Positions 2,261-45,615 of a stretch of DNA of 64,000 nt are shown here, one piece after another. Made by a program: the position numbers and the translations under genes. The stretch covers positions 288,001-352,000 of the forward strand of contig JBMNLZ010000003.1 of assembly GCA_050953065.1 (NCBI GenBank), written 5' to 3'. The notes beneath the pieces are model-generated. The model was given only the letters and a program-made list of their open reading frames with translations. It did no database searches and had not been told where the DNA came from. This DNA is from Bacilli bacterium. Lineage in GTDB: Bacteria; Bacillota_I; Bacilli_A; ML615J-28; CAG-698. Every line of letters begins with the position of its first letter. Position 1 is the first letter of the stretch.

Positions 2261-3316
2261 CTAACAATTACATGAAATATATCTGTAATCTGTTATTAAT
2301 TTTTTTGCTCTATCTAGTTGTTCCTCAAAAATATATATAAATTTATTTCCATCTTGGAAAAAAATTGCATTAAAATTATCTATAATTTCTTTAGGTATCG
2401 TATTAATTTTGATTAAAACATTTGAATAATTATCATTCGGCAAATAACCCCCATTAATATGTACATTTGATTTAACAAAAGGCTTGTAGTAACTACAAAA
2501 TAATGCACTATCATAATTTTGTTTTACAGTTCCACCAAATATTATAGATAAATAAGGATCTGGTTTCAAGCCACAATTTTTATAAGCCAAACGACTTCTT
2601 GATTCATCATATTTCTCTTGGTCTCTATAATACTTGGTTTTAACTAACAACAGCGCAGTTTTAGGTGATACTGGTACATACGTAAAAAGATGATCACTAT
2701 CCAAAGTGTTTTCTATAATTGCACACCTTTCAGATATACACATCCATTTTTCATTACTTCTAATAATTGATAAATGTAATCCATATAATGATTGAAAAGG
2801 GTTCTCAATATAATCTACTTTTTTTGAACATATTATATCTGTAAAATTTTCTAGGTGAGTAAAGTTTTGATCATTTTTTACATTTTCAAAAACCTTGATT
2901 ATTTCTTCTGTCATATATAGAACATCTTCTTTTTTAGTATATTTTTTTACACCCCATAAATAGTTATTACTTTGATATATTCCAAAATCATCTTCAAGTA
3001 TCACTTCAGATGTAAATTGATGACGATAAGAACAAAAAGCACAATATAATTTCAAAAGAAAAAGTTCTTTTCCAGTAATTTTTATTTCTTCATCAGCGTT
3101 GTCTACCTTATGAATTATTTCAGAAACATAAGCCTCAAAATTTGCAATTCTATTTTCAAGAGAATCTGTTCCATCAATAGAGTAATATTTTTTCTTTGAA
3201 AAATCTTTAATATTGATTTTTCTTTTTTTGCTAGTGTTTTTATTAAAAAGCAGTCCCCCTTGTTCGCTCCATTTCTTTATATGAAACCTTGGCAAAAAGT
3301 GATTATTAATTTTCAT
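2261..3316 (-). CDS. DUF4238-family protein
   Basis: N-terminal NHFLPRFHIKKW motif and YS..LE.RIANFE segment typical of DUF4238; start chosen at MKINN behind GAAGGAG RBS. Confidence 0.65.
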   Translation of the reverse strand: MKINNHFLPRFHIKKWSEQGGLLFNKNTSKKRKINIKDFSKKKYYSIDGTDSLENRIANFEAYVSEIIHKVDNADEEIKITGKELFLLKLYCAFCSYRHQFTSEVILEDDFGIYQSNNYLWGVKKYTKKEDVLYMTEEIIKVFENVKNDQNFTHLENFTDIICSKKVDYIENPFQSLYGLHLSIIRSNEKWMCISERCAIIENTLDSDHLFTYVPVSPKTALLLVKTKYYRDQEKYDESRSRLAYKNCGLKPDPYLSIIFGGTVKQNYDSALFCSYYKPFVKSNVHINGGYLPNDNYSNVLIKINTIPKEIIDNFNAIFFQDGNKFIYIFEEQLDRAKKLITDYRYISCNC

Positions 3317-3493
3317 TATATCTCCTTCATATATCAAACATTTTTTAATAAATAATATGGTATCTGCAATACTATATAAAAAGTTCTTAAAACTTACAAC
3401 AATTATACCATATTTACTTTAAAAATTCTTCTAGTTTTTTTAACATATAATATTAAAAAGTATATCACAGTTAACATGCTTTTGCAAAATATC

Positions 3494-3593
3494 ATTAATC
3501 AATATTATTTAATTACAATAAACAGTTCTATTGATTAATACCACAACTTTTTACACAACCACACAAAAAATAAACAACAGTTGTGTAAAAGTT
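3494..3593. repeat. Two adjacent inverted repeats in the RloC-DUF4238 spacer
   Basis: attaatcaata(3494-3504)/tattgattaat(3529-3539) and aactttttacacaac(3545-3559)/gttgtgtaaaagtt(3580-3593). Confidence 0.6.
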
Positions 3594-3784: not shown

Positions 3785-5911
3785 CTATTGTGGTTTCAAC
3801 TGTTTATAATGAATCTCATCGTTATTTTTAATTATTTTCATTAAAAACTTTGCCGCTATTAAAATATCATTATTTGTTTTGGTGTTGGTATGTGACAAAA
3901 CATTAATTACACTTAATAAAGTCCCTAAATCTCTCTTGTCTTTTGTGCTTTCTATTTTGAAAATGTCCTCAATATGTTTTTTATTGTTTCTTTGAGGTAA
4001 AAACGAGTTATTATGTGTTTTAAAAAACAAAAATTCTTCAAAAACTTTTCGAATAATATTTGGCATATGATAATATTCACAATCCGTAGATAATTGTTTT
4101 TTTTGCGATATCGCATACACTTCTTCAAACATATGTTTGTACGGACTCCCTTTACTAATATTTTTAATTAAATAACTTTTCTTATCTTTTTTTATCTCAT
4201 AAGAAGCATATTTCGAACCATTTTTAAAGCTGTTTTTTCCATAAATTAGTTGGCTAAAATCATCCCAAACATGAGTTAAAACAAATACTTGATCTACATC
4301 CAATTCCATTAAATTTTGTACAATTTCTAAAACATAAAATCTATTTGAATCATCCATACTAGATATCGGATCATCTAATATTATAAGTTTTATATTGTTT
4401 TTTAATCTTTTTTGCTCTCGATCTTCAAACATCTCATAATAAAAAAATAGTAAAGATAGTAAATTTTTTTCGCCTTCACTAATATCATCTATTGTTAATT
4501 GGTCTTCAGTTAATAATGTTGTCCTCAAAATATAATCATTATCTTCAATTTCTAATTTGATTGAAATCTCCAAGTCTTTCAATGTTTGATTAACCAAATT
4601 CATAAAATCTGATGTAACAGATTTCATTTCCTTTAATTCTTTAATTTTCGTTTCTAAATTAATATTTTCACTTTCTTTTTCTAAAATACTTTTATTGTTG
4701 ACGTTTAAATCATTTAATCGGTCTTTTATAAAAGTTGAGTCCCCTATTGCCATATAAATTGAACCTTTTACAATAGTTCCTAGTTTACTTAATTTGTTTT
4801 TTTCTTCAGCAATATTTTTCAATCTAACAGAATTGATTTTTTTAATATTTTCGTTAATTGATTTAAGCTTATCCTCAAAAATTTTTACATCTATTTTATC
4901 TATTGCAATTATATTTTTAGCATTATAATGGAACTTATTAATTACTTCTTCAAAAAAAGTTAAGTCTTTTTCAATTTCTTTAAAAAATTGAGATACACTA
5001 CTATCTATTACATTTTCGTACATTTTTTTATTACCAATAAATTTTTTTATCTTTTTTAATATATCACACCAAAATTCGTATTGGTTATAAAAAAATGTTT
5101 CTGCATCATATTTCACATTGCTAACATATGACTGTATTTTTTCTTTGATATCGTTATAACTAATAGGTGACCCACAAAATTCACACTTTTCTTTATTAAA
5201 GTGAATTTCAAGTCCCTCAGAAAGCCAATCAATAATTTGCGAACTAGGTATTTCAATATCGCTAATTTTTGCATTTTGAAACTTTTCTAAATTTGAATAA
5301 AAAGATGGTTCTTCACTAATGATTTCTAATTTTTCAAGTGATTCCATATTAATAATTTTATTTTCTATAGTATCATCACCTGAGGTAGCCTGAATCTTTT
5401 CCTTATCAGGCTCAACTTTTAAAGCTTCCATATAATCAAGACGATATCTTTCTATTATTTCATTCACCTTTAAAGTTTTGGATTTGTTTTGTATGTTTAA
5501 TTTATCTTTTTTTAATTTAAAAATTTTTTCTATTTCATCTTTTATTTCTACTTCTTTTTTTTCATTCTCGCTTTTCAATTTATCTATTTGTTCTTTAGAA
5601 ACCAATTTCTTTTCTAACTCTTTTATTTGTTTTTCAATATCTACATCAACTTCACCAAATGACACCTTCACTCCTCTCAATTTTTCGCGATTTGTTTCGT
5701 CTAATACTATAACCTTAGAGTATTCAGTAGAATAAACTCTTAGGTCATTTTCATCGTTAGATTTTAAAAACTCTTCCTTTATTCCATTACTCAAAGCCGT
5801 TTTACCAGTTCCATTATAACCAAATATTACATTAATTTTTCTAAAATCATCCTCTGGGCCTGTAAATTCTTTAAATGATTTGTGAGTAAAATCACAAACT
5901 TTTTTTATCAT
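3785..5911 (-). CDS. RloC-like AAA_13 ABC-ATPase with zinc hook and C-terminal HEPN anticodon-nuclease domain
   Basis: Walker A GYNGTGKT, coiled coil with CEFCG hook, signature SEGEK, Walker B LDDPISSMD, H-loop LTH, C-terminal NIIRKVFEEFL...NVLSH; near hsdM. Confidence 0.8.
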   Translation of the reverse strand: MIKKVCDFTHKSFKEFTGPEDDFRKINVIFGYNGTGKTALSNGIKEEFLKSNDENDLRVYSTEYSKVIVLDETNREKLRGVKVSFGEVDVDIEKQIKELEKKLVSKEQIDKLKSENEKKEVEIKDEIEKIFKLKKDKLNIQNKSKTLKVNEIIERYRLDYMEALKVEPDKEKIQATSGDDTIENKIINMESLEKLEIISEEPSFYSNLEKFQNAKISDIEIPSSQIIDWLSEGLEIHFNKEKCEFCGSPISYNDIKEKIQSYVSNVKYDAETFFYNQYEFWCDILKKIKKFIGNKKMYENVIDSSVSQFFKEIEKDLTFFEEVINKFHYNAKNIIAIDKIDVKIFEDKLKSINENIKKINSVRLKNIAEEKNKLSKLGTIVKGSIYMAIGDSTFIKDRLNDLNVNNKSILEKESENINLETKIKELKEMKSVTSDFMNLVNQTLKDLEISIKLEIEDNDYILRTTLLTEDQLTIDDISEGEKNLLSLLFFYYEMFEDREQKRLKNNIKLIILDDPISSMDDSNRFYVLEIVQNLMELDVDQVFVLTHVWDDFSQLIYGKNSFKNGSKYASYEIKKDKKSYLIKNISKGSPYKHMFEEVYAISQKKQLSTDCEYYHMPNIIRKVFEEFLFFKTHNNSFLPQRNNKKHIEDIFKIESTKDKRDLGTLLSVINVLSHTNTKTNNDILIAAKFLMKIIKNNDEIHYKQLKPQ

Positions 5912-7684: not shown

Positions 7685-8965
7685 TTAATCCTTTAAACAG
7701 CCTATTGGAATTACAAACACACCATCTTCTCTTTTATAACCATATTTTGTTCCTGTTATAATAATCTTTAAATCGGGAAGTCTTAATGGAGTTTGTTTTT
7801 CCTTTTTGTTATATTCTTTTATTAATTCTTCAATTTCACAAAGATGTTTTGCAGCCACATCTATTTCATTTGAGCCTAATTTAAATTCTAAAAGAGCATA
7901 TCTTCCGTCTTTTAGATGTAGTACTCCATCAGCTTCAAGACCATATCTATCATGATAATATGACATCTCACCATTCATTTTTAAAGAATATACTTTAAGA
8001 TCTCTTATACATAAACTTTCAAACAAAAAACCAAGTGTTTTAAAATCAGTATCAAAATATTTAGGTGATAATCCAAGTGCTGCAACTGCAATAGATGGGT
8101 CTATTAAATTTCTTTTTTTACTAGCTCTAATTACTGTTTTAGATCTAATAGCAGGGCTCCATGCATCGACATCTTCAATAATGTATAATTGTTCTAATTT
8201 TTCTAAATAATCATAAAAAGTTCTATCAGAAATTTCATTAGTAGCACTGACATCACCATAGATAGTATTATACTCACTTAGAGTACATATATTTCTTGAA
8301 TATGATTTTAAAATTGCTAAAGCCCATTTCGGATTTCTCTTCACTCCATCAATATTTGAAATATCTTTATGGCAAGTTTGATAGACTAAATCTTCTACTA
8401 CATGCAATTGATTTTCATTATTAGAAATTTTTAAACAAGAAGGCCATCCTCCTCTACAAATCGCAAAAATTAAATCATCTAGATTTAAATCAGATGTACA
8501 ACCATCAAACGAATCAGGATTATCAAATAATTCAAGTAATGATATAGTACCATTAGATTCATTTGACTCAAACAAACTCATCGGGTACATCTTCATTGTA
8601 CTAATCCGCATTGTACCTGTGTGTGGCGTTTCAACGTTAGCAGAAGTTGAACCAGTAAGTATGTACAACCCTACCTTTTTCTCATCATCTATAGATTTTC
8701 TTATAGCCCCCCAAATTTTAGGAGCATCCTGCCACTCATCAAACAACCTTGGCTTTTCACCATTTAAAAGTCTAGATGGTGCAATACTAGCTGTAGAAAT
8801 TAATTGATCTCTTACATCCTCATCCTGAAATTCAATAAAACTCTTTGAATGCACTTTAGCAGTGGTTGTTTTACCACAGCCCTTTGGACCAACAATTAAA
8901 ACTCCACCAAAAGTATCTAATTTGTTTTTTAAAATAGTATCAGAAATTCTTTTCTTATATTCCAC
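7685..8965 (-). CDS. AAA_14 ATPase with C-terminal DUF4143 (PD-(D/E)XK-like) domain
   Basis: Walker A GPKGCGKTT, Walker B FDEWQ, LTGS, GGWP, GFLFES, EADGVL...LEFKLG. Confidence 0.9.
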   Translation of the reverse strand: MEYKKRISDTILKNKLDTFGGVLIVGPKGCGKTTTAKVHSKSFIEFQDEDVRDQLISTASIAPSRLLNGEKPRLFDEWQDAPKIWGAIRKSIDDEKKVGLYILTGSTSANVETPHTGTMRISTMKMYPMSLFESNESNGTISLLELFDNPDSFDGCTSDLNLDDLIFAICRGGWPSCLKISNNENQLHVVEDLVYQTCHKDISNIDGVKRNPKWALAILKSYSRNICTLSEYNTIYGDVSATNEISDRTFYDYLEKLEQLYIIEDVDAWSPAIRSKTVIRASKKRNLIDPSIAVAALGLSPKYFDTDFKTLGFLFESLCIRDLKVYSLKMNGEMSYYHDRYGLEADGVLHLKDGRYALLEFKLGSNEIDVAAKHLCEIEELIKEYNKKEKQTPLRLPDLKIIITGTKYGYKREDGVFVIPIGCLKD

Positions 8966-13581: not shown

Positions 13582-14493
13582 ATGTATTCTTACAAACCTT
13601 TAGAAACAAAACTCAATAATTTAGGCTTAACCAAATCAGATTTAACTACAAAACTTGGTATTTCATCAAGAACTATTGCAAAACTTTCAAAAGGAGAAAA
13701 ACTAGCAAATCATGTCCTTCTTAAAATTGCTGATTTCTTACATTGCAATCCAGAAGACTTATTTAGATTTGTTTGCGATAACCACATTTTACAAATTCTT
13801 CGTGAAGAAAAAGAAGCAAAGGTATCTGGTGGTCTTTACCATGAATTGCAAGTTAGAATGACTTTTAACTCCAATCGGATTGAAGGCTCTAAACTAACCG
13901 AAGACCAAACACGGTTAATCTTCAAAACACGAACAATCAATGTCGGTGATGATGTGCCAGTTGATGATATTATTGAAACAAGCAATCACTTCCAAGCTAT
14001 TGATTATGTCATTGATTCTGCTCTCAAACCTTTAAGCGAAGAAATCATTATGGACCTTCATTTACTTTTAAAGCAAAGTACTAAAGATTCCTCACTCGAC
14101 TGGTTCATCGTTGGTGATTATAAAAAACGAGCCAATCTAGTCGGTGGCAAAGAAACTTGCAAGCCAAGTGAAGTTCCTAAAATCATGAGCAAACTAATTA
14201 ACGATTTTACTTCAAAAAAAGCCATTACAATCAATGACATAGTTGAGTTTCATGCTGATTTTGAATATATCCATCCATTTCAAGATGGTAATGGTAGAGT
14301 CGGTAGATTGATTGCTTTGAAAGAATGTTTAAAATTTAATATCATTCCTTTCATAATCGAAGATTCAAAAAAAGCTTTTTACTACCGAGGTCTTTCTAAT
14401 TGGAAACAAGAGAAAAGCTGGCTCATTGATACTTGCCTTAATGGGCAAGATACTTTCAAAAAAATTCTAAAAACACTTGATATTCAAGAATAA
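13582..14493 (+). CDS. Fic-family protein with N-terminal Cro/C1-type HTH
   Basis: N-terminal SYKPL...LGISSRTIAKL HTH; SNRIEG; canonical Fic motif HPFQDGNGRVGR. Confidence 0.92.
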   Translation: MYSYKPLETKLNNLGLTKSDLTTKLGISSRTIAKLSKGEKLANHVLLKIADFLHCNPEDLFRFVCDNHILQILREEKEAKVSGGLYHELQVRMTFNSNRIEGSKLTEDQTRLIFKTRTINVGDDVPVDDIIETSNHFQAIDYVIDSALKPLSEEIIMDLHLLLKQSTKDSSLDWFIVGDYKKRANLVGGKETCKPSEVPKIMSKLINDFTSKKAITINDIVEFHADFEYIHPFQDGNGRVGRLIALKECLKFNIIPFIIEDSKKAFYYRGLSNWKQEKSWLIDTCLNGQDTFKKILKTLDIQE

Positions 14494-15573: not shown

Positions 15574-16107
15574 CTAATCAGAAATTGCTTTATTAATTTC
15601 ATTATAATTCCAATATTCTTTTCCATCAGTTTCTTTATAATACATAACTATGTGAGTTCCATAGCCTTTTATGCATTCAGGGCATTTTGATTTATCAACA
15701 TTTGCATAATTATAAATAACAACTATTTTTTTGATTAAGTTGTCTTGATAATCTTTTAATGCCATTTCACATTCATATTCTATATAGCTTCTATAATCCA
15801 AAGCATTATTTCTACAACATCTCTTATTATAACTGTTGTAACTTTTACAATGTTGGCATCCCCCTTTTGTTAAATTTTTAGTTTGCTTTCCAACAATTAA
15901 TACGAATGTTTTAGAAACATTTAGCCTTTTTCGTAATGATGTTTTAATACTGCATAATAAATCATCATCCGATGCTTGTGTATATTCATGCGCATCAACA
16001 AAATCAAGTGTTAACTTATTATTTTTTTTCCATTCATATAATGTTTTTATTGCATCTTCATCTCCAGTCCAATCTCCAGCAATATATGTTTTAGTTCTAT
16101 ATTCCAT
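15574..16107 (-). CDS. thsB: TIR-like (MTH538/DUF1863) protein, Thoeris ThsB-like, with Cys-rich insert
   Basis: TYIAGDW...DFVDAHE...SIKTSLRKRLNVSKTFVLIVG...YIEYECEMA (catalytic Glu); CQHC..CC insert. Confidence 0.75.
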   Translation of the reverse strand: MEYRTKTYIAGDWTGDEDAIKTLYEWKKNNKLTLDFVDAHEYTQASDDDLLCSIKTSLRKRLNVSKTFVLIVGKQTKNLTKGGCQHCKSYNSYNKRCCRNNALDYRSYIEYECEMALKDYQDNLIKKIVVIYNYANVDKSKCPECIKGYGTHIVMYYKETDGKEYWNYNEINKAISD

Positions 16108-16133
16108 TTTATTCTCCTTTATATTTTTTTAAT

Positions 16134-16784
16134 TTATTTTTTAATTATAGAAAGCAAATCTTTTATTGAATTAACAGTATAGAAATCACTTGTTTTAAGA
16201 GGAAACTCAATTGAAAATGAAAAACGGGAATCATGAACCAATTGTTCCTTTAAGTGTTTGAGTTCATTTTCGAATTCATTAGCAATTTTGTTTTCTAAAT
16301 AAAGCCACGGCGATAAAGTTTGTTTTAACTTACCAGTATTAATGAATATAAAAATTTTAGACGACTTTATGGTATCAATTAACGAATCAGCCAAAATCAT
16401 ATTAAAAGTTGACGCAGATTGTCGTACTTTATCGTAAGAAAGTTTCCCATTATCCTTGCTATTAATTTCATCAAATTCAACTTGAGAATCATCAATGCTT
16501 TTCCAAAAAAAGGAATCAATAAAAACCTTGTAACTATTATTCATTAATACATTAGCTACATATGTTGCAATCTCTTCGTCATCATGCGAATAAGAGATAA
16601 AAATATCACAGTCCTTTACTATTGGGACAATAGATTTTCTAATTTTTTCCATAGGCATTTTGCTTGAAGATTTGAGTGCTTCATCAATTTTCATATTTAA
16701 ATTATTATTTAAACATTTAAATGCACAGCCATCATAACTATCCTGAATTTCACTTTTGGTTATTTTTAAAACTATTTTTTTCAT
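16134..16784 (-). CDS. TIR-domain protein (TIR_2-like), Thoeris-associated
   Basis: DIFISYSHDD box 1, VFIDS, SPWLYLENKIA catalytic Glu; TAATG coupling to the upstream TIR gene. Confidence 0.8.
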   Translation of the reverse strand: MKKIVLKITKSEIQDSYDGCAFKCLNNNLNMKIDEALKSSSKMPMEKIRKSIVPIVKDCDIFISYSHDDEEIATYVANVLMNNSYKVFIDSFFWKSIDDSQVEFDEINSKDNGKLSYDKVRQSASTFNMILADSLIDTIKSSKIFIFINTGKLKQTLSPWLYLENKIANEFENELKHLKEQLVHDSRFSFSIEFPLKTSDFYTVNSIKDLLSIIKK

Positions 16785-17347
16785 TACATAATTCCCCATG
16801 ATTTATAAGCCTGATCATTATAGTAATTTAATGATGTTGCTGGATAATTATTATCAACAACTGAAAATTGAGAAATAGCAGCAAAAATTGGTTCTTTTTT
16901 AAAAGGAACATGAATACATTTTGCCAACTTATTATTAATATACTTTAAAAGATTTTTACACCACGCCGATGAAAGAAGTGAAGGGTCTTTAATCTTTTTA
17001 TAGCCGACATAAACTACAATAATAGGAAGTTTATATGTTACGACAGCTAGTTCAATTTCATAATTCAACATTCCTCTATTGAAACTTGTATCATTAGAAA
17101 TAATAACTAAAAAGTTTTTAGAATTCTTCATTCTGTCTTTAAGTCGTTGTTTAAGTGTTTCTTCAGAACTTGAATCTCTAACCTGGTATGTTTTGCTATG
17201 ACTATCACTAAAAGTAAATTCAATATCACTATTTTCTTTCCATGCCTTCAATAATTGAAAGTATTTTTGGTCACTTTTTGTGGGGTCAACTTCATTATTT
17301 CCATCGAAAGCTACGTATGTTCCATTTCTATAATCACTCATTTTCAT
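16784..17347 (-). CDS. thsB: TIR-like (DUF1863) protein, Thoeris ThsB-like
   Basis: YVAFDG...LLKAW...FSDSH...LKQRLKDRMKNSKNFLVIIS...LNYEIELA...LPIIVVY. Confidence 0.8.
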   Translation of the reverse strand: MKMSDYRNGTYVAFDGNNEVDPTKSDQKYFQLLKAWKENSDIEFTFSDSHSKTYQVRDSSSEETLKQRLKDRMKNSKNFLVIISNDTSFNRGMLNYEIELAVVTYKLPIIVVYVGYKKIKDPSLLSSAWCKNLLKYINNKLAKCIHVPFKKEPIFAAISQFSVVDNNYPATSLNYYNDQAYKSWGIM

Positions 17348-18192
17348 TCTCCTTTTTCAAAAGTTCTTAATCTTTCAAAATTAATCTTATTTCTTATTTT
17401 TGGTAGCAAAACAATATTAAGAGATGCTGGATCTGAAAAAGATACTTTAGATAATTTAAAGGTTGAAATCATTGCCTCTAGTGCATCTTGATATGAAATA
17501 CTTGTTCCATCAATCCTTGTTATTCCAGTGCCACATAGTGGTAAATATAATTTTTTTAAATTATAAATTCCATTAAGTTCATTCCACATTCTAAGCAAAC
17601 AGCATACATATTCTTCACTTGAAATATTGCTATTATCATTTTCATCAAAACTACTAAAAGCAACTAAAGCGTATCTCCCTTGGTATATAATCGTTGTTCC
17701 TAATTCATATTTTGTCGTACGCCCGCCATTTATTCTGTTACAATTTTCTTTTTTTATTCTTTTCTTTTTACTTAATAAACAATTATCTATTTCTTTTTCA
17801 AAAGCTCTAACATCATTTATATGCTTATCTATAAATATTCCATTTCTAGAATTATGTGCTATTATTTTATCATCAACAATAACATCAAAATATTCATTAA
17901 AATTTACCGTTTCAATACCATCATTAAAGTCTTCCAAATTTCCAAATAATATATTAACATTGGTGTTATTAATCGTTAATGTTATTGAATCGGATTTTTT
18001 CGCTTTTGAATACATAATCAAATAAGAGAACACTATTGCAACAATACATAAACTAAAACAAATTATTGGGATATACCAAGGGAGTAAAAATGAACCTATA
18101 ATAGTAATTACAAACGAAAATATTGTTTCAATAATACCTAATGGTTTAAGAAAACGCTCAAGTAGATTTTTATCAAAAAATTTAATATTCAT
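17344..18192 (-). CDS. thsA: Type II Thoeris effector ThsA-like (two TM helices + macrodomain, DUF6430-like)
   Basis: Two N-terminal hydrophobic helices, then NEYFD, YELGT, LPLCGTGITRI macrodomain motifs; first gene of an operon with three TIR genes. Confidence 0.8.
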   Translation of the reverse strand: MNIKFFDKNLLERFLKPLGIIETIFSFVITIIGSFLLPWYIPIICFSLCIVAIVFSYLIMYSKAKKSDSITLTINNTNVNILFGNLEDFNDGIETVNFNEYFDVIVDDKIIAHNSRNGIFIDKHINDVRAFEKEIDNCLLSKKKRIKKENCNRINGGRTTKYELGTTIIYQGRYALVAFSSFDENDNSNISSEEYVCCLLRMWNELNGIYNLKKLYLPLCGTGITRIDGTSISYQDALEAMISTFKLSKVSFSDPASLNIVLLPKIRNKINFERLRTFEKGE

Positions 18193-18360: not shown

Positions 18361-18440
18361 CAATTACGCACCCTTGCAAAAAATCACGCACCCTAAGGTC
18401 AAATCACGCACCCCTGACTAGTTTTACGCACCCCTAGTCA
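18361..18440. repeat. Four 20-bp-period direct repeats with ACGCACCC core
   Basis: caattacgcacccttgcaaa / aaatcacgcaccctaaggtc / aaatcacgcacccctgacta / gttttacgcacccctagtca. Confidence 0.9.
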
Positions 18441-19880
18441 TTATCTGATAAGAATAGAATCAGCAAATGATGTCGCATAGAAATCAACCTCAAGAAAATA
18501 TAGATTTTCTTGGTAATCTAAAGATTCAAAAACCTCAAAAACCAATGTGAATTCATATAATCCTATTTGGTTAATTTCTAATCCTATCCATGAATAGTCA
18601 TCAATTGGTTTTATACTTTTGAAATCAGTATATCCAAAATAACCACTAACATTTTCTTTTGCGTGATCATTTTCTAAGTAAAAGTCGTTTTTGTTATCTA
18701 GTGTATGATCATTACCAGTTGCTGTCTTCTCTATAGTGATGTTAAGTATCAAGTATTTTTTTCCTGAACTAGCTTGCATCAAGATTTCCTCGTGATTAGG
18801 ATTTTGAATTACAACTTCACTTGAGTAAGTAGCATTAGTTACCTTTAATAAAATAGTATTGTCCTTAAATGAAATATTGTCTCCTATATTAGCAAACGCA
18901 TCAAGAGGAATTATTGGTTGATAAAACGCATAAACATTGAATACTTTATTTTCTTCATAAGCGTAAAAATATAAATCCCTTAATTTAGTAGCTTTTTTAC
19001 CTTTTTCTGAAGTCCAATATAAAAATTTATATCCTTCTTTAATTGGCTCATCGTCGGGCAATTCAATTATTTGACCTGGACCAACACTAATAGGATTCAT
19101 CAATGTTTCTTGAGAACCTCCATCTAAATCAAATTGAACTGTGTATGGAGATGTATTTGATCTTAAAACAAGAAAAATGTTTTTTTGTACTCTTCTTAAG
19201 CCATCATCAATTGATAGAACCATTGTTTTATTACTATTTAGAAATTCCTCATTAAGCACAAATGACAATTCAACAACAGTTAAAATTCCATTTTTCATAT
19301 ATGGATAGAAGGGTTCAAATGTATCTGGATTCGCTTCAATAGTTCTTCCTTCTTCACTAGTAGCATTATCTATGATACCAATAACATAATCCCCAGCAAA
19401 GCTAAGGGTTTCTTCTATAACGTTTATATCTCCACCTACCACACCCGATGCCATTGCGGACACAGTAGCTTTCGCCAAACTCTCAATAAAGACTGACATT
19501 GGTGAACCTGCATATTTATCAACAAGTCTTAGTTCAAACATTTCAGGTCGGATTACTTGTTGATTTACGTTAAAATCTGTATTCCATTGTTCGATTCTTA
19601 GTTGAAGATTTAAAGTGTAGATATCATTTTCTTCTATAGCGTTTATTCCTACGACCTTAATATATATTTCATCAGCAAACTCAACTTCTTCATATAAATA
19701 CACGTTTTCTTTGTTTTCAGATCTTTCAGAAGGTTGATTATCTTGATGATTTACAATAGATAGGATTATTGCAATTCCAATTCCTCCAAAAAGTAATATA
19801 CCCAAAAAAATTCTTATTGAAAGAGAAACCTTTATAGTAAAAGTGTCCCATACTTCTGCTATCTTTTTAATAATTTTCAT
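18441..19880 (-). CDS. Membrane-anchored surface protein with InlB B-repeat (Flg_new-like) domain
   Basis: N-terminal TM helix; YTVQFDLDGGS...PIKEGYKFLYW...VYAFY B-repeat; flanking beta-rich domains. Confidence 0.7.
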   Translation of the reverse strand: MKIIKKIAEVWDTFTIKVSLSIRIFLGILLFGGIGIAIILSIVNHQDNQPSERSENKENVYLYEEVEFADEIYIKVVGINAIEENDIYTLNLQLRIEQWNTDFNVNQQVIRPEMFELRLVDKYAGSPMSVFIESLAKATVSAMASGVVGGDINVIEETLSFAGDYVIGIIDNATSEEGRTIEANPDTFEPFYPYMKNGILTVVELSFVLNEEFLNSNKTMVLSIDDGLRRVQKNIFLVLRSNTSPYTVQFDLDGGSQETLMNPISVGPGQIIELPDDEPIKEGYKFLYWTSEKGKKATKLRDLYFYAYEENKVFNVYAFYQPIIPLDAFANIGDNISFKDNTILLKVTNATYSSEVVIQNPNHEEILMQASSGKKYLILNITIEKTATGNDHTLDNKNDFYLENDHAKENVSGYFGYTDFKSIKPIDDYSWIGLEINQIGLYEFTLVFEVFESLDYQENLYFLEVDFYATSFADSILIR

Positions 19881-19984: not shown

Positions 19985-20827
19985 TTATTCGCTATCCTCC
20001 TCACTAAATTCATCTGGCAATCCAAAGAAATCACAAAGAACTAAGTAAGCAGCATATCTTTTAGCTTCTTTCTTTGACGTTGCATATGCAGTGTGCTTCA
20101 TTGCCCAGCTTCTTACATAACAGGTACATTCCCACATCAATCTTCCATCACGCATTAACACTTGTTCATCTGGTTGGTCGTATTCAGGAATGGAACATCT
20201 ACCTTTTTCTGCTAGTTCTTTTAAGGTAGTTACTGCGTTGTTTAACTGAAACTTTGATGGTCTTGGTTCTTCTGTGTCGACATCTGCTAGGAAGTCTTCT
20301 ATACGAAGTATAACTTCAACCATGTTTTGAAGTTCATCAGGATTCCAATCGCTATCAATAGCAGCTGCTCCAAGTATAGCTTCAAAGAGATCAGCTTTTA
20401 CTTTGGTGAGATTATCTTTAAACTTTGGATTTTCTAGGTCTGTATCACCTAAATACATAAACTTGAATAGTCCTAGTTTATCAATTCTTTTTGCGAGTGT
20501 TTCATTTGATACTATTTGTTTCTTTAATTCTGTAAAATCAGCTTCATTTTTGTGAGCTACGATGCAGTACTCATCAAGGTCATTCTCTTCATCATAGTAA
20601 TCCGATTGAGATTTCACAAATCCAAATCTATCAGCGATCACTTTTGTTACATAAAAATCCAGAATTTTGTCGCCTAGAAATTCCAGAACTTCATTGTTTT
20701 CACCACCATGTTGTGATGAGTAAGAGCTACGAGTGAAAGCTTGTAAAAGCAAGTCTTCATTATTAAACCAGTAGCCAATTTTCTTTTGCACATCATCTAA
20801 ATGTTCCATTAAATCTTGTGTTTTCAT
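19985..20827 (-). CDS. Ribonuclease III family protein with C-terminal dsRNA-binding domain (prophage cargo)
   Basis: LLLQAFTRSSY, signature NEVLEFLGD, ADLFEAILGA (catalytic E/D retained); C-terminal TLKELAEK...SKKEAKRYAA dsRBD. Confidence 0.9.
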   Translation of the reverse strand: MKTQDLMEHLDDVQKKIGYWFNNEDLLLQAFTRSSYSSQHGGENNEVLEFLGDKILDFYVTKVIADRFGFVKSQSDYYDEENDLDEYCIVAHKNEADFTELKKQIVSNETLAKRIDKLGLFKFMYLGDTDLENPKFKDNLTKVKADLFEAILGAAAIDSDWNPDELQNMVEVILRIEDFLADVDTEEPRPSKFQLNNAVTTLKELAEKGRCSIPEYDQPDEQVLMRDGRLMWECTCYVRSWAMKHTAYATSKKEAKRYAAYLVLCDFFGLPDEFSEEDSE

Positions 20828-21060
20828 TTTTATTCCTCCATTTTATTTTATTGTCCGAGAGGAAACAAAAAAGACCTATGGCCGATAAGGATACCCACTC
20901 CTAGCAGTAAGTAGAGTAAACCCATTTGCTTAAGTCTTAATTAAATCAAAATAATATTTGTAAGTTTATATATCTAACCTTTCCCACTCGCATAGAGAAG
21001 CTTAAATAAATACCGTTACGCTGTTACTTTGAGGAAACTAATCCTTCCATCGGACACAAT
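20828..21060 (-). ncRNA. Candidate structured leader/ncRNA upstream of RNase III
   Basis: 5' arm TGTCCGATGGAA (21045-21056) is complementary to TTCCTCTCGGACA (20852-20864); internal hairpin AAGACTTA...TAGGTCTT followed by T6; begins just after a sigma70 promoter. Confidence 0.55.
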
Positions 21061-21061
21061 T

Positions 21062-21090
21062 ATTCTACCATATAAACTTGGTTTTGTCTA
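21062..21090 (-). promoter_or_regulatory. Sigma70-type promoter for the RNase III unit
   Basis: TAGACA-17 bp-TAGAAT with extended -10 TG. Confidence 0.7.
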
Positions 21091-21095
21091 TAGCC

Positions 21096-21123
21096 AAAAA
21101 AAAGAACCTGCTTAGAGGTTCAA
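21096..21123 (-). terminator. Terminator after the recombinase operon
   Basis: gaacct-ctaagc-aggttc followed by T8 on the minus strand. Confidence 0.75.
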
Positions 21124-21125: not shown

Positions 21126-22706
21126 TTATATTGTTATTTCTATCCCGCTTGTAAACTTAAAGGTTATGGTTTTATCTCTGTTAACAATTGCCTTTTCAAT
21201 CATTATCATCCACACATCATTTGACCATTCAGGCAGGTAAGTATCTGCCTTTTTTATTTCCTCAAGATAAGCCTTCATCTTAATTTCCTGTGATTGTTTG
21301 TAGGCTCTTTTTTCTAATGCTTTATCTAAGGAGTTTTTATTTGATTCATACTCAGCTGAAAACTCTTCATACTTCCTTGCAAACTCAGCTTGATCCTGTG
21401 CTGTTTTGGTGTTTTCTTTTATCAACTTTTCTACCAAGCCACTTATAACTGCCATCCTGTTTTGAAGGTCTATAATCTTAGCGTCCTGTTCTGAAGTGTC
21501 TGATAGAACTTGGATAATCTCTTTTATATCTTCTATTATTCTTTCCTTGCCCTTCATCACTTGGTTATATGCGATTACAAATTTTTCTTTAATCTTGTCT
21601 TCAGTTAATGCAGGAGTTTGACACTTGTCCTGGTTCTTGTTGTACTTGCAATTGCATTGATAAACCGTCCTAGCGTACTTGCTTGTTGAATGCCATATCT
21701 TTCTGCCATAGAACCCTCCGCAATCAGCACAGACTAATTTTGAGCTAAACACACTGCTTCCTGAATATGATGCACCAATCTTATCTCTTCTTAGTAATTC
21801 TGCCTGAACTATCTCCCATTCTTCTTTATCAATAATTGCAGGGTGACTGTTCTCTACATAATACTGCGGAAGGTGACCTTGATTCTTTTCTACTTTATGC
21901 TCTAAGTAGTCCTTCGTATAGGTCTTTTGAAGTAAGGCATCACCTTTATACTTTTCATTTCTTAAAATTGAATTGACGGTGTTTTTGGTCCATTTATATG
22001 ACCTTCCACTTGGTGTTGGTATATTTCTTTCTTTTAGATATTCTGCAATTCCTGTGCAGGTTTTTCCTTCCCTTAAAAATAAGTGATAGATTTTTCTAAC
22101 TAAAATTGCTTCATCCTCAACAACTATAATCTTGTCATTTTCTTTTGCATAACCTAGCATGTTGCTATAAGCCCAGCTGACTCTTCCTTCTTTCATTCCC
22201 CAGCGTTTACCAATTGTTACGTTTTGAGAAATACTTCTGCTTTCTTCTTGTGCCATACTTGCCATAATTGTAAGCAGGAATTCAGTCTTCTCATCAAGTG
22301 ACCATAGGTTTTCCTTTTCAAAATAAACCTCGATCCCTTTGGCTTTTAGCTTTCTAGTATAGAAAATTGTGTCTAGCGTGTTTCTGGCAAAGCGTGATAT
22401 TGATTTGGTTATGATAAGGTCTATCTTTCCTTCAAGTGCATCCTTAATCATCTCGTTAAAGCTTTCTCTTCTTTTGGTACTTGTTCCAGAAATACCATCA
22501 TCGGCATAGACCTTAACATACTCCCACTCAGGTTTTCTTTGGATAAATTCCGTATAATGTTTTACTTGAGCTTCGTAGCTTGTTGCTTGCTCTTCATCAT
22601 CTGTTGAAACACGAGCGTATGCTGCTACTTTTCTTCTACTTAGCTCATTTAGTGGCGAGAGTGTAGATGGATTAATTGTTGATGGAATAATTCTAACTTT
22701 TGCCAT
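21126..22706 (-). CDS. Large serine recombinase (integrase)
   Basis: AAYARVSTD catalytic Ser, YADDGISGT, KSISRFARN, recombinase domain, zinc ribbon CADCG, coiled coil. Confidence 0.95.
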   Translation of the reverse strand: MAKVRIIPSTINPSTLSPLNELSRRKVAAYARVSTDDEEQATSYEAQVKHYTEFIQRKPEWEYVKVYADDGISGTSTKRRESFNEMIKDALEGKIDLIITKSISRFARNTLDTIFYTRKLKAKGIEVYFEKENLWSLDEKTEFLLTIMASMAQEESRSISQNVTIGKRWGMKEGRVSWAYSNMLGYAKENDKIIVVEDEAILVRKIYHLFLREGKTCTGIAEYLKERNIPTPSGRSYKWTKNTVNSILRNEKYKGDALLQKTYTKDYLEHKVEKNQGHLPQYYVENSHPAIIDKEEWEIVQAELLRRDKIGASYSGSSVFSSKLVCADCGGFYGRKIWHSTSKYARTVYQCNCKYNKNQDKCQTPALTEDKIKEKFVIAYNQVMKGKERIIEDIKEIIQVLSDTSEQDAKIIDLQNRMAVISGLVEKLIKENTKTAQDQAEFARKYEEFSAEYESNKNSLDKALEKRAYKQSQEIKMKAYLEEIKKADTYLPEWSNDVWMIMIEKAIVNRDKTITFKFTSGIEITI

Positions 22707-24016
22707 TAATGATTCCCCTTTCTATATTTTTTGAGTGCATTTTGTCTTGCTTGTTCTTTCATTTCAGGTGTCCATGATTTACTTCTTGATCGGTCTTCCC
22801 AACAAATCTCTCCAGTCTTTCCATTTTTGAAATGATAAACTAACCTGTTCTCATTAAATGCCTCTATGTAATCAATTCTGTCTTGGACCAAATCATCAGT
22901 TAATTCATCAACTCCAAGAACCTGTGAGGTTATTTCATTCAACGTTTCTTCTGGTATAGCTTTAGATTCACATTCGCTTTTTCCTAAAGTATCATAAGTA
23001 GTGCAAACCCATATTTTATGGTTGCTTCTCGTACCTCTTCTAAAATTAGCACCACAAACTCTACACTTAACTAATCTTGTATAACGTTTTTTTACCAAGC
23101 TGATACCTTTATTATTTGATAATTCACATCTTTGTTTTCTTAACTCTTGAGCCATTTGATACTCTTCAAGTGAAATAATAGGTTCATGGTTATTATCAAT
23201 AACATACATATCCTTTTCACCTTTATTCCTTTTGGTTTTCTTTGAAAGATAATCTTCTCTATAAGTCTTTTGAAGTACTAAGTTGCCTGTGTAGTTGTAA
23301 TTCGTTATTATGTTTAGAATTGTTGATTTGTTCCATTTACCTCCTCTTAAGGCTTTTACACCTTCATTGTTTAGGATGTTGGCAATCATCTGTATTCCGT
23401 ATCCATCAAGGTACATCGTAAATATCCTTCTTACAAGTTCTGCTTGCTCTGGCACAACTACAAGGTTTTTATTAACTATTTTATAGCCATGCATGTCTTT
23501 TGCACCCCAGAGAATACCTTTTTCAAAATCTTTTTTAATTTTCCACTTTATGTTTTCTGAGTTTGACCTTGCTTCCTCCTGTGCAAATGAAGCTAAAAAT
23601 GTTAATACCATCTCACCTTCAGCACTCAATGTATGCAGGTTCTGTTCCTCAAAAAATACATCGACTCCTATAGTTTTTAATTCTCTAACTGTCTTTAGCA
23701 TCGTGAATGTGTTTCTTGCAAATCTTGATATGGACTTAACAATCACCATATCTATTTTACCTGCCTTACAATCGCCAATTAGCCTTTGAAACTCTTCTCT
23801 TGTATCTTTTGTTCCAGTCAACGCTTCATCTGCATAAATCCCAGCAAATTCCCAGCCTGCTTGCTCTGATATCATCTTGTTGTAATAACTAACCTGAGCG
23901 GCTAAGGAATGAAGCATGGCGTCTTTACCAGTTGATACTCTTGCATATGCTGCTACCCTAGTTTTCTTTTGTAACTTTGGTAGAACTTCTATCTTGGTTA
24001 TCCGTTTCTGATCCAT
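22706..24016 (-). CDS. Large serine recombinase
   Basis: AAYARVSTG, YADEALTGT, KSISRFARN, zinc ribbon CRVCG; TAATG-coupled to the second recombinase. Confidence 0.95.
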   Translation of the reverse strand: MDQKRITKIEVLPKLQKKTRVAAYARVSTGKDAMLHSLAAQVSYYNKMISEQAGWEFAGIYADEALTGTKDTREEFQRLIGDCKAGKIDMVIVKSISRFARNTFTMLKTVRELKTIGVDVFFEEQNLHTLSAEGEMVLTFLASFAQEEARSNSENIKWKIKKDFEKGILWGAKDMHGYKIVNKNLVVVPEQAELVRRIFTMYLDGYGIQMIANILNNEGVKALRGGKWNKSTILNIITNYNYTGNLVLQKTYREDYLSKKTKRNKGEKDMYVIDNNHEPIISLEEYQMAQELRKQRCELSNNKGISLVKKRYTRLVKCRVCGANFRRGTRSNHKIWVCTTYDTLGKSECESKAIPEETLNEITSQVLGVDELTDDLVQDRIDYIEAFNENRLVYHFKNGKTGEICWEDRSRSKSWTPEMKEQARQNALKKYRKGNH

Positions 24017-43343: not shown

Positions 43344-43544
43344 TTACAAATCTTCAATTTTTGGAATTTCGAGTATTATCTTTTCAATTTCATCAGATTT
43401 CAAACCAAGTCCCGCAAGTGCCTGCCTTGTTCCGCAAGTAGGGCATATCGGTGTTTGATTATCTACTCTTGAAATCGCTGGATGACCTTTATAATCCTTA
43501 CCACATAAAGGGCAAACTTTAATAAAATCAGTTGTTGTTTTCAT
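43344..43544 (-). CDS. Small zinc-ribbon protein
   Basis: CPLCG...PAISR.DN...ICPTCG; overlaps the GGCT stop. Confidence 0.75.
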   Translation of the reverse strand: MKTTTDFIKVCPLCGKDYKGHPAISRVDNQTPICPTCGTRQALAGLGLKSDEIEKIILEIPKIEDL

Positions 43545-44001
43545 TGCTAACCTCCATACTTTTTATTAGTGCTTCTTCTAGATACTTAGGACTAAATCCA
43601 AATGTTTTATAACCTTCAAGACAAGTTGTCACATAGAACTTTGATGGCATCCCTATCTCTCTATCTTCATGCATGATATAAACGAATGCTTGTTTTTGAT
43701 AGTTTTTGCCTGTCTTGATGCCTTTGATGTTAATTTCCATATCTGCTTTATAATAAAAGGTTGGATAACCTTCGTATCTATCAAGTGCCTGTTCATCAGT
43801 TTCAGTTACTTTCCAAATTGCAACTGGTAGTGATTTTCCTTCTGCTTTTTCAATGGTTAGGTAGCCACCAGTTTTACTTCCTTTAAAAAGAAGTTCATAG
43901 TCTTTAATAAACCCTGTTCCAACCACCCTAGCAGCTGGACATCTTCTTTTCATCTGGCTAACGTTTAGGTTGCTTCCATAAGCAATGTAATATTTACTCA
44001 T
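43528..44001 (-). CDS. Gamma-glutamylcyclotransferase (AIG2-like) family protein
   Basis: YIAYGSNLN, QMKRRCP, LDRYEGYP. Confidence 0.9.
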   Translation of the reverse strand: MSKYYIAYGSNLNVSQMKRRCPAARVVGTGFIKDYELLFKGSKTGGYLTIEKAEGKSLPVAIWKVTETDEQALDRYEGYPTFYYKADMEINIKGIKTGKNYQKQAFVYIMHEDREIGMPSKFYVTTCLEGYKTFGFSPKYLEEALIKSMEVSNENNN

Positions 44002-44012
44002 GCTGCACCCCC

Positions 44013-44975
44013 TTAAGCCGAAACCATAGAAGCAGGTCTTACCCCACTTCTAAAGCTTGCATCGCCAGATAGTCTCTTTGTTAAGAACTCTCTTGCTGTT
44101 GAGAACTCTTCACCGATAAATCCAAGTCTTAATAACCATGTTCTCATAGCATACTTTGGATTCTCGTTTTGTTGCGGCTTTGGAGAGGCTCCTTTGGCTT
44201 CCTTAGCCATTTGACTTAAGGCTAGGCATAATTGAATGTAACTCTTTAATTGGCCAGCGTGAAGGCCGTTTAGCTTGCCATCTTTAGGTGCATCAAATTG
44301 AAATAATCTAAATTCAATCGTTCCCTTTGTAAAGGTTGCATGGAAGTTTAGCATGTGGTATCTTGAACCGTTGTAATGGTTGCTTCTTGCATAATCTTCA
44401 TTATGGCTTTTGTACCAAACATCTGCAAAACCACTCATTGTTGAAGGTTTCTTTTTGTTTAAGTTTGCTAGAAATCTAGGATCAACCATTTTGCAGTATC
44501 TGCCGATTCTGTTTCTATCAAGTTCTAAGGCCTCTACTAATAATCCTTCGTGACTTGCCATGATGTTTGTTAGGTTTCTCATGGTTCTTGGTGTGTGTCC
44601 GTTAGCTCCAATGTGAATGTGAACTCCACACATTCTTGTTGCATCACTTTTTGCTCCAGCTTTTCTTAAAATTCTGACTATCTCTTGCAAGTCATCGATA
44701 TCTTCGTATTTAAGAATTGGTGTTACCATTTCGCATTTTTCATCGTCTAGTCCTGCAATGCTTACGTCCTTTTGAAACTTCCAAACTCTACCTTGTGTAT
44801 CCTTGCAAGCCCATGTTTGATATCCGTATTCAACGTGTGCGTTCCATGCTCTTGTTCCAAAGAATGCCGCTACTAGGTCTGCAGCTTTCTTTCTTTTAAT
44901 GTTGTTCATTTCAATCTCAACACCGATTGTTTGATTTTTCATGTTGTCGATTTGATTTTTGACTTTTTCTTTCAT
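44013..44975 (-). CDS. Putative amidoligase (Amidoligase_2, COOH-NH2 ligase type)
   Basis: TIGVEIEM, DVSI, CEMVTPIL, CGVHIHIG, RYHMLN, GTIEFRLF. Confidence 0.88.
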   Translation of the reverse strand: MKEKVKNQIDNMKNQTIGVEIEMNNIKRKKAADLVAAFFGTRAWNAHVEYGYQTWACKDTQGRVWKFQKDVSIAGLDDEKCEMVTPILKYEDIDDLQEIVRILRKAGAKSDATRMCGVHIHIGANGHTPRTMRNLTNIMASHEGLLVEALELDRNRIGRYCKMVDPRFLANLNKKKPSTMSGFADVWYKSHNEDYARSNHYNGSRYHMLNFHATFTKGTIEFRLFQFDAPKDGKLNGLHAGQLKSYIQLCLALSQMAKEAKGASPKPQQNENPKYAMRTWLLRLGFIGEEFSTAREFLTKRLSGDASFRSGVRPASMVSA

Positions 44976-45017
44976 TTTAAATCCTCCTCAATAAACTTGC
45001 GTGTATTCTTTTGTCGT

Positions 45018-45059
45018 GTATATATATCACTCTAAACGCAATATATAGCAAGTCATTTG
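45018..45059 (-). promoter_or_regulatory. Conserved 42-bp phage promoter, copy 2 (amidoligase unit)
   Basis: caaatgacTTGCTA...cgtttagagTGaTATATA. Confidence 0.75.
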
Positions 45060-45096
45060 AGAAGTATTTTTCAACTTTTTTTGATATATTTTTGTA

Positions 45097-45324
45097 TCAA
45101 ACCTTATCATTGGCGATTACCTTAAATTTGTCTTCGCCATAGATCAAATTTAGTGAACTTCCATTGTCCCAATGAACTAAAATAGAGCCAATATCATCAA
45201 CTCCAACGACTGTTCCATAAGTACCAATTGGCGGTGCTTGAGTATCGTCCATTTTTAACAATTCAATTCTTGTCCCTTTTGGATATTCTTTTCTAAGCAT
45301 GTCTACTATTTTATCCAGCATCAT
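45097..45324 (-). CDS. DUF4314-family protein
   Basis: YPKGTRIELLKMDD.QAPPIGT.GTV.GVDDIG...WDNGSSL. Confidence 0.85.
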   Translation of the reverse strand: MMLDKIVDMLRKEYPKGTRIELLKMDDTQAPPIGTYGTVVGVDDIGSILVHWDNGSSLNLIYGEDKFKVIANDKV

Positions 45325-45335
45325 AACCCTCCAAT

Positions 45336-45551: not shown

Positions 45552-45573
45552 TTTTATACCTCCTTTTAGGTAT

Positions 45574-45615
45574 GTATATATATCACTCTAAACGCCTTTT
45601 ATATCAAGTCATTTG
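45574..45615 (-). promoter_or_regulatory. Conserved 42-bp phage promoter, copy 3
   Basis: caaatgacTTGATA...cgtttagagTGaTATATA. Confidence 0.75.

Follow-up and report, generated by a model that had tools for sequence, protein, structure and literature searches.

Bacteria are usually credited with a single RNase III, a housekeeping enzyme. The enzymes of Escherichia coli (rnc, with the leader rncO, Rfam RF00552) and Streptomyces (absB) regulate their own synthesis by cleaving the leader of their own mRNA. Another pairing of a non-coding RNA with a nuclease is found in the type III toxin-antitoxin systems (ToxIN, AbiQ/antiQ and CptIN), in which a promoter, a tandem-repeat RNA, a terminator and the gene of a ToxN-fold endoribonuclease follow one another in mobile, defence-rich settings. 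Here we describe a cassette from a 64,000-nt stretch of a Bacilli bacterium genome (GenBank assembly GCA_050953065.1, contig JBMNLZ010000003.1, positions 288,001 to 352,000; 'the window' below). It is a self-contained, horizontally mobile unit, comprising its own extended -10 promoter, a 229-nt leader and the gene of an accessory RNase III. Judged by its sequence, the leader is a new conserved structured RNA motif, outside all Rfam families. As the same promoter, leader and gene recur together in ten of ten related loci, the arrangement is more than a chance one.

Layout of the cassette

All coordinates are positions of the window, and all features of the cassette lie on its minus strand. From the upstream boundary to the gene, these are as follows:

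21096-21121, minus strand: intrinsic terminator of the upstream serine recombinase gene, with a 6-bp stem, a 6-nt loop and T8 (stem-loop at 21121-21104)
21062-21090, minus strand: SigA/sigma-70-type promoter, with TAGACA at 21085-21090, a 17-nt spacer and the extended -10 element TGgTAGAAT at 21062-21070 (hexamer TAGAAT at 21062-21067)
20828-21056, minus strand: structured leader RNA of 229 nt containing no gene, with 70 base pairs modelled from the fold and the alignment of 11 loci
21045-21056, minus strand: 5' switch strand UGUCCGA..GGAA, with two possible partners, the 3' arm of the terminator hairpin and the post-terminator strand (P1a/P1b)
20939-21039, minus strand: P2 rod, with a basal helix of 13 bp, the 4-bp P2a and a distal helix of 18 bp, capped by the GNRA loop GCGA at 20988-20991
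20867-20938, minus strand: long irregular hairpin of about 24 bp followed by U6, a candidate intrinsic terminator or attenuator, with AUCGG in its 3' arm (20882-20886) complementary to the switch strand
20852-20864, minus strand: anti-Shine-Dalgarno box UUCCUC (20859-20864), then the 3' strand of P1a, UCGGACA (20852-20858)
20833-20839, minus strand: Shine-Dalgarno sequence GGAGGAA, separated by 5 bases from the ATG at 20825-20827
19985-20827, minus strand: accessory RNase III gene of 280 aa, encoding a catalytic domain that contains an acidic insert (about 20 aa), as well as a domain that binds double-stranded RNA (dsRBD)

The terminator of the recombinase gene insulates the cassette. In a scan for promoter-like sites between 18000 and 24500, the cassette promoter scored 10 of 12 and was one of only two sites with the TG extension among the 20 found; this number is no excess over the 27.3 expected. 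An earlier note on this stretch, made from the sequence alone, had described a stand-alone unit insulated from the recombinases, a TAGACA-17-TAGAAT promoter and a non-coding region of about 230 nt, and all three descriptions hold, with promoter, leader and gene moving together.

Related loci were collected by a scan of 185,579 species genomes, which gave ten loci (L001-L010) encoding relatives with 69-93% identity to the cassette protein. Two of these are cut by a contig end at residue 115, so that the 11 loci referred to below (the window and the ten fetched loci) hold nine full-length copies of the gene. An extended -10 element with a -35-like hexamer 17 nt upstream, ending 4-5 nt before the first paired base of the leader, is present in all of the 11 loci.

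Conservation of the leader and evidence for selection

The leader RNA is almost certainly a functional element. Among the 29 pairs of sequences whose proteins are less than 80% identical, leaders share 75% of their positions (73% in unpaired columns), whereas the four-fold degenerate sites of the gene are 44% and its third codon positions 53% identical, so that the conservation of the leader cannot be ascribed to mere recent descent. The 70-pair structure was written from the fold of the window leader and the alignment, and was compared with versions whose pairing partners had been slid. In a structure-blind MAFFT alignment, 90.0% of cells were paired (43-52% with slid partners), 12 pairs were changed on both sides (slid, 5-10) and the covariation score was 0.207 (slid, 0.063-0.093); depending on the measure, between none and two of 500 shuffles reached the observed values. 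The alignment fitted to a covariance model gave 92.2% paired cells, 13 doubly changed pairs and a covariation score of 0.220. The earlier note had proposed aligning the regions upstream of homologues, and the leader structure proved to be conserved in each of the ten homologue loci.

The signal belongs to RNA and to the coding strand, as can be deduced from the G-U pairs (9-15 of the 70 pairs in each leader) and from the greater stability of the sense strand, which exceeds that of the antisense strand by 17-35 kcal/mol in all 11 loci. In agreement with this, the covariance model scored 163-266 bits on the sense strand and at most 34 bits on the opposite one.

None of the database searches returned a described relative of the leader. 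Rfam 15 gave no match in the window at gathering score, nine chance-level matches only (none of them rncO or a riboswitch) at E-values up to 10 between 19850 and 21200, and in the ten fetched loci only two tRNAs and one 6S RNA. No match to the cassette was obtained by blastn against the phage and plasmid collections, while the RNase III genes found by tblastn were all distant, those of phage records being at most 31% and those of plasmid records 24-32% identical.

Several candidate identities of the leader were considered and rejected. A T-box or known riboswitch was dismissed for want of any Rfam match at E-values up to 10. As for coding potential, the leader does contain open reading frames (ORFs) of at least eight codons, yet their starts, lengths and sequences are not conserved. 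A hydrophobic frame of 25 codons starting with ATG (20923-20847, minus strand), which overlaps the terminator hairpin, was rejected as a type I toxin and judged non-coding: its ATG is present in the window only (1 of 11 loci), no Shine-Dalgarno sequence precedes it, and in the relatives it shows radical replacements that track the RNA pairing, the peptide not being conserved. Tandem Repeats Finder (minimum score 30) detected no tandem repeats within 20828-21056.

Another possible explanation is that the RNA acts in trans, as a small RNA of the mobile element directed, for instance, at transcripts of the host or of a rival phage, with RNase III processing the RNA or cutting the resulting duplexes. 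A terminated product of about 190 nt is indeed predicted, lineages differ in the upper part of the terminator hairpin and in distal P2, and RNase III has been proposed to cut sense-antisense duplexes in other systems, a hypothesis accompanied by in vitro cleavage (PMC5829567). However, the complement of the conserved hairpin loop occurs in the window at chance frequency (two matches including the site itself, a number equalled in 18 of 100 shuffles), the variable parts change by compensation and not in the manner of a free guide sequence, and the covariance model found no free-standing copy of the RNA in the 165,578 bases searched. We therefore regard a role in trans as clearly improbable.

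Alternative pairings in the leader

The minimum free energy (MFE) fold of the window leader has -60.2 kcal/mol, as compared with -47.2 ± 4.3 kcal/mol for shuffled sequences (z = -3.04; none of 200 shuffles was as good). It is closed by pairing of the 5' UGUCCGA..GGAA with UUCC..UCGGACA just before the ribosome-binding site; it contains the multi-segment hairpin AAGACUUA...UAGGUCUU (20938-20871), followed by a U6 tract that is invariant among the loci; and its UUCCUC (20864-20859) is complementary to the GAGGAA inside the Shine-Dalgarno sequence (20839-20833). These three elements had all been recognised in the earlier note. The basal 13 pairs of P2 and the 4-bp P2a are nearly invariant, while the distal 18 pairs hold most of the compensatory changes (five pairs are doubly changed in helix 5); the loop of P2 is GCGA or GCAA in all 11 loci.

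The switch strand has two partners of similar strength. Across the 11 loci, its duplex with the 3' arm of the terminator has -7.8 to -16.0 kcal/mol, and that with the post-terminator strand (P1a plus P1b) -7.6 to -18.3 kcal/mol; in L008 the post-terminator partner differs in sequence, yet retains a 9-bp pairing with the switch strand. In transcripts ending at the U-tract, the MFE fold contains the terminator in eight loci and the antiterminator in three, with comparable energies. Four positions of the 5-bp antiterminator core are complementary in all 11 loci and the fifth in ten of them; the core never covaries. When RNAalifold was applied to the MAFFT alignment, it missed P1a, whose 3' strand is misaligned in L004, L007 and L008, and paired the 5' strand with the terminator arm, by which the alternative pairing of the switch was exposed.

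Since alignment columns misplace this 3' strand, accessibility of the Shine-Dalgarno sequence was calculated by folding each sequence separately. In full-length leaders, the probability that it is unpaired was 0.71-0.96 in five loci, 0.58 in one and 0.12-0.35 in the other five; after removal of the first 22 nt, it fell to 0.00-0.36 in all 11, because UUCCUC then pairs with GAGGAA. Modelled in this way, the leader looks like a switch that is off by default, and a single short strand at its 5' end would relieve termination as well as the occlusion of translation. Both the anti-Shine-Dalgarno box and the 3' strand of P1 are found beyond the U-tract, a position that speaks for control of translation in cis, and we consider it likely that the leader controls the downstream gene in cis. 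Termination at the hairpin and alternation of the pairings in vivo would follow from the modelled folds.

Such an architecture, with alternative pairings of similar strength around a terminator and sequestration of the Shine-Dalgarno sequence, is also the classic one of riboswitches. The leader could thus be a sensor in which a small molecule, an alarmone or a phage-derived factor tips the balance between terminator and antiterminator, with RNase III as the output. The unpaired columns, about as conserved as the 75% overall, are compatible with this, and the GNRA loop suggests a tertiary contact. On the other hand, no Rfam family was matched even at the most permissive threshold, the most conserved part of the leader is a regular A/U-rich helix and not a junction pocket, the gene has no metabolic or transport link that would hint at a ligand, and its neighbours vary from locus to locus. 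A riboswitch in this sense appears very unlikely.

The protein is an accessory RNase III

The product of the cassette gene matches Pfam PF14622 at 6.1e-16 and PF00636 at 2.2e-14, and by its sequence features it is a catalytically intact-looking accessory RNase III (class 1, with a dsRBD), distinct from the housekeeping Rnc. The motif NEVLEFLGD occupies residues 45-53, and the catalytic acids E46, E49, D53, D146 and E149 are all present; the five are kept in each of the nine full-length leader-bearing copies. A profile was built from 40 family members, full-length and in a single stretch, chosen among 150 listed representatives; the 110 others, including fragments and forms of 320-700 aa, were left out. 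This profile aligns end to end with the bacterial RNase III structures 1o0w (3.8e-27) and 3n3w, and its positions 184-260 also match the dsRBDs of TARBP2, R2D2, Loquacious and Staufen; Pfam dsrm was not reported for the 280-aa protein at E-values up to 0.001. Domains of Drosha and Dicer are among the best solved relatives by profile. Thermotoga RNase III (1o0w) lacks an equivalent of 18 profile positions, which puts the acidic insert at about 18-22 aa. The variant motif, the catalytic acids and the dsRBD, the latter recovered by profile, were thus as the earlier note had stated; so was the presence of an acidic insert, which is smaller than the 25 aa given there.

The family is large. A word-indexed search returned 1976 proteins, and an exhaustive search 4671, 730 and 139 cluster representatives at E-values up to 1e-3, 1e-10 and 1e-30, respectively. 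In the family tree, the leader-bearing genes form one tight subclade. Five distant members (P0122, P0131, P0173, P0216 and P0242) have lost one or more of the catalytic acids, and one of them, P0122, forms a long branch within the leader-bearing clade; family members of this kind may be inactive RNA-binding derivatives.

Could the gene be simply the rnc of its host behind a plain untranslated region, with conservation due to recent descent or to a site acting at DNA level? The best 120 of the 1976 database relatives are 83-100% identical, so that part of the similarity does reflect recent spread. However, the protein reaches only 96.5 bits with TIGR02191, the equivalog model of the housekeeping Rnc, whose cut-off is 166.25, and is 24-32% identical to the RNase III genes of plasmid records, most of which are annotated as rnc. 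Canonical genes lie in fabG-acpP-rnc-smc (Bacillus and Listeria) or lepB-rnc-era (E. coli) contexts, and neither neighbourhood was found at any of the 11 cassette loci. In the tree, where the earlier note had suggested setting the protein against housekeeping Rnc, three canonical rows are split from 45 family rows with 100/100 support, the tool warning of long branches. Moreover, two copies (L009 and L010) occur in one metagenome-assembled genome (MAG), conservation of the leader far exceeds that of synonymous sites, and the leader's compensatory changes and strand-specific pairing through G-U pairs point to RNA. This explanation is contradicted by the evidence and we give it hardly any credence.

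Mobility and defence neighbourhood

The cassette is cargo of prophage ends and defence islands. A siphovirus-type prophage, with genes for terminase, portal, protease, capsid, connectors, tape measure and holin, extends over approximately 24-57 kb of the window, and two tandem large serine recombinases (526 and 436 aa; 21126-24016, minus strand) are placed between it and the cassette, the nearest recombinase gene being that at 21126-22706 (minus strand). The tandem pair also precedes the cassette in L003, L004 and L009, and remnants of a recombinase C-terminus in L001 and L002, so that pair or remnants are present at six of the 11 loci. The loci are homologous from the promoter, or a point shortly before it, to the stop codon of the gene or at most about 180 bp past it, and closer relatives also share some 100-200 bp of the recombinase end; these limits define a unit of transfer of about 1.1-1.25 kb.

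Several observations concern the ends and surroundings of this unit. The best NCBIfam matches of the tandem recombinases were CcrB and XisF, far below the cut-offs. A segment of about 170 bp right after the RNase III stop codon is common to three loci only (L003, 4722-4894; L005 and L006, 6834-7013). L007 and L010, two loci without recombinases, each have a tRNA gene (5385-5469 and 5069-5157, respectively) 300-600 bp upstream of the cassette, and L001 has a 6S RNA gene (3282-3497) just past the repeat array described below; these genes are probable landmarks of insertion sites. Where neither recombinases nor tRNA genes precede it, the cassette stands between defence genes.

Known or candidate defence genes are present in the fetched flanks of six of the 11 loci, the window included:

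Window: Thoeris ThsA and three ThsB; HTH-Fic (PDC-S04); PDC-S01
L001: UzuA (Uzume)
L002: type III restriction-modification, PDC-S11, UzuA, type I restriction enzyme
L005: PDC-S04
L006: BREX PglZ and BrxL, AbiTii, PDC-M42A, AbiEi/Eii
L008: GmrSD/HEC-06, Abi_2

The input for PADLOC-DB 2.0.0 consisted of 56 of the 90 non-RNase III ORFs of the loci; it excluded the ORFs that Pfam assigned to recombinases or housekeeping proteins, together with every ORF of L009 and L010. Prophage and defence genes agree with the prophage-borne, anti-phage type of setting that had been supposed from the window alone. Among the remaining loci, L004 has an HNH gene and a weak SymE-like match below the Pfam cut-off, L007 has ordinary cellular genes, in L003 and L009 the contig ends at or in the gene with prophage genes adjoining, and in L010 it ends in the gene.

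In the window, the Thoeris system occupies 15574-18192 (minus strand); its ThsA has a Macro domain (PADLOC 5.9e-72), and three ThsB genes of TIR type, all different, stand in a row. The HTH-Fic gene at 13582-14493 (plus strand) matches PDC-S04 at 2.6e-100, and an AAA_14/DUF4143 ATPase gene at 7685-8965 (minus strand) matches PDC-S01 at 3.2e-47; these two matches give the part of the window left of the prophage the look of a defence island. Between the cargo gene that follows RNase III and the Thoeris operon, the motif GGGTGCGTRA is repeated four times with an exact period of 20 bp (18364-18434, minus strand), and nowhere else in the window; 0.52 occurrences are expected by chance and none of 100 shuffles reached four. 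The array is also found after the cargo genes downstream of RNase III in L001 (2711-2851) and L002 (8972-8982), and could serve as an operator or iteron array, or else mark where the mobile element ends. Between cassette and array there is a variable cargo slot (window, 18441-19880, minus strand; L001, 2084-2695; L002, 7478-8200), which in the window encodes a 479-aa protein that has a Listeria-Bacteroides repeat domain but matched nothing in PADLOC, NCBIfam or PHROG, and in L001 and L002 UzuA of Uzume (3.5e-51 and 1.2e-36). RNase III and the 479-aa gene may be co-transcribed, as the scan for terminator-like sites called none in the interval that separates them. In L001, about 40 bases at the 3' end of the RNase III gene are shared with an ORF of the aminoglycoside-2''-adenylyltransferase family (1308-1853; PF10706, 1.3e-26). 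The prophage carries accessory genes of its own between its large- and small-terminase genes, downstream of the large terminase (43528-46903, minus strand), which by PHROGs encode a gamma-glutamyl cyclotransferase-like protein, an amidoligase and a ParB-like/DNA methyltransferase fusion.

A setting of this kind recalls an RNA antitoxin, and the earlier note had compared the locus with type III systems. In such a model, an excess of the ~190-nt RNA would hold RNase III as a pseudo-substrate, and when a phage shuts off host transcription, the RNA would decay and free the nuclease. The order of promoter, structured RNA, U6 hairpin and nuclease gene is kept at all 11 loci, as that comparison supposed, the long and near-invariant P2 would suit a specific protein-binding site, known defence genes accompany the majority of the loci, and the cassette is self-contained, as such modules are. 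However, the leader is free of tandem repeats and the nuclease is an RNase III and not of the ToxN/AbiQ/CptN type, with no PADLOC model matching it. In addition, the 3' strand of P1 and the anti-Shine-Dalgarno box are downstream of the U-tract, where they have a meaning only on read-through mRNA. An RNA antitoxin therefore seems unlikely. The alternative offered by the same note, a self-cleaving translational switch, would fit the modelled anatomy better.

Proposed mechanism

Our favoured, though tentative, explanation is that the cassette encodes a riboregulated accessory RNase III which feeds back on itself through its leader and serves in conflicts with phages or mobile elements. The switch strand, approximately the first 12 nt, would pair with the 3' arm of the terminator and let RNA polymerase read through, and could also pair with the anti-Shine-Dalgarno region after the U-tract and free the ribosome-binding site. 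Where this strand is unavailable, the terminator would form and UUCCUC would close the Shine-Dalgarno sequence, a default-off state yielding a terminated RNA of about 190 nt. By binding or cutting the near-invariant P2, the protein would cause the switch strand to be lost or trapped and its own synthesis to stop; it would thus be a double-stranded RNA (dsRNA)-directed nuclease held at a tightly set low level.

Since the cassette is transferred by itself into unrelated genomes, the input to its regulation should be either universal or carried inside the cassette. The only trans-acting product that it encodes is a dsRNA-binding nuclease, and the most conserved part of the RNA, the long regular helix P2, lies between the switch strand and the rest of the RNA. 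For these two reasons we favour feedback, and suggest that the operator of the switch may well be the protein of the cassette itself, a proposal to which we would give slightly less than an even chance. Whether the cassette serves phage or mobile-element conflict is, in our judgement, evenly balanced.

A number of points weigh against this explanation. The Shine-Dalgarno sequence is predicted to be closed in five of the 11 full-length leaders despite the presence of the 5' strand. The key helices of the switch (the base of P2, P1b and the 5-bp antiterminator core) barely or never vary, and covariation cannot confirm core pairings that do not vary. Only 75-86% of cells show pairing in P1a, and L006 lacks this helix. 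The terminator hairpin has an A/U-rich base and was not called by the consensus terminator scan, whose loop limit of 8 nt excludes it. The alignment comprises only 11 sequences of about seven lineages, and the structure was partly derived from the very sequences on which it was tested, which inflates the percentage of paired cells relative to the slid controls. With regard to a role in defence, five of the 11 loci have no known defence gene (three of these contigs end at or in the cassette gene), the count of six is a raw one, and the RNase III protein itself matches no PADLOC model at E-values up to 0.01.

A bolder possibility, to which we assign little probability, is a one-gene RNA-gated antiviral module, in which the excess ~190-nt RNA would be a switch in cis and at the same time a decoy in trans silencing the dsRNA-cutting enzyme; infection would upset the balance of RNA to protein, and the enzyme would cut phage or cellular dsRNA. 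If that were true, the cassette would be a prokaryotic counterpart of the Dicer-type antiviral RNase III and a new class of RNA antitoxin. If, instead, the leader is only autoregulatory, as in the simplest form of the feedback that we favour, it would still be a new example of a nuclease's self-control packaged for horizontal transfer.

Whatever the case, a distinct and widespread RNase III subfamily behaves as mobile cargo, and one tight clade of it carries a private, strongly selected RNA, with no Rfam match and with no description in the literature found. The leader adds a structured RNA motif with a clear switch logic, and the cassette is a candidate single-gene factor of defence or conflict based on dsRNA cleavage.

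Comparison with known systems

The literature search yielded neither a defence or toxin-antitoxin system built on an RNase III-family enzyme nor an RNA motif associated with genes of RNase III in the parts of the publications that were available, although supplementary candidate lists might name the family; in the accessible portions of recent defence-discovery papers RNase III is not mentioned, and one review uses the term only for Dicer. The impression in the earlier note that no system of this form had been described is consistent with this.

The cassette resembles rncO and absB in having an RNase III gene behind a structured leader that could be its own substrate, and by analogy with these negative feedback would be the most economical reading. 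However, its leader has no sequence or structure match to rncO, is longer (229 nt), and is equipped with a terminator-like hairpin and an anti-Shine-Dalgarno switch; the gene, unlike rnc, is a mobile accessory paralogue outside the lepB-rnc-era operon.

With the type III toxin-antitoxin systems, it has in common the order of promoter, non-coding RNA, terminator (here predicted) and endoribonuclease gene, as well as the mobile and defence-rich setting. Nevertheless, it is not a member of this type, having no repeats and a nuclease of a different family, although it may conceivably work in an analogous way. Its RNA is a single complex fold that spans the terminator and is predicted to control the ribosome-binding site in cis, and its nuclease should, by family membership, be a dsRNA-specific RNase III and not a ToxN-fold enzyme.

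Additional RNase III enzymes are known from Synechococcus PCC 7002, for which a published study reports three RNase III homologues, Mini-III being described as well, and in which cutting of sense-antisense duplexes, with cleavage in vitro, was hypothesised to control plasmid copy number (PMC5829567). The cassette protein would likewise be a second RNase III-family enzyme with a specialised role beside the housekeeping one. It differs from Mini-III in keeping the dsRBD, and from the extra homologues in its acidic insert of about 20 aa, in its mobility together with an RNA of its own and in its location at prophage ends and in defence islands.

Finally, Dicer and Drosha are the RNase III enzymes of eukaryotic antiviral RNA silencing, and, according to the consulted sections of a 2017 review, bacterial RNase III takes part in guided defence only as a non-Cas host factor of class 2 CRISPR (PMC5303251). 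The cassette protein shares with Dicer and Drosha the RNase III domain, the dsRBD and possibly an antiviral setting, but is a single-domain bacterial enzyme of class 1, without a helicase, a PAZ domain or an Argonaute partner. The cassette thereby offers a bacterial system for asking whether RNase III enzymes had antiviral roles before eukaryotic RNA interference.

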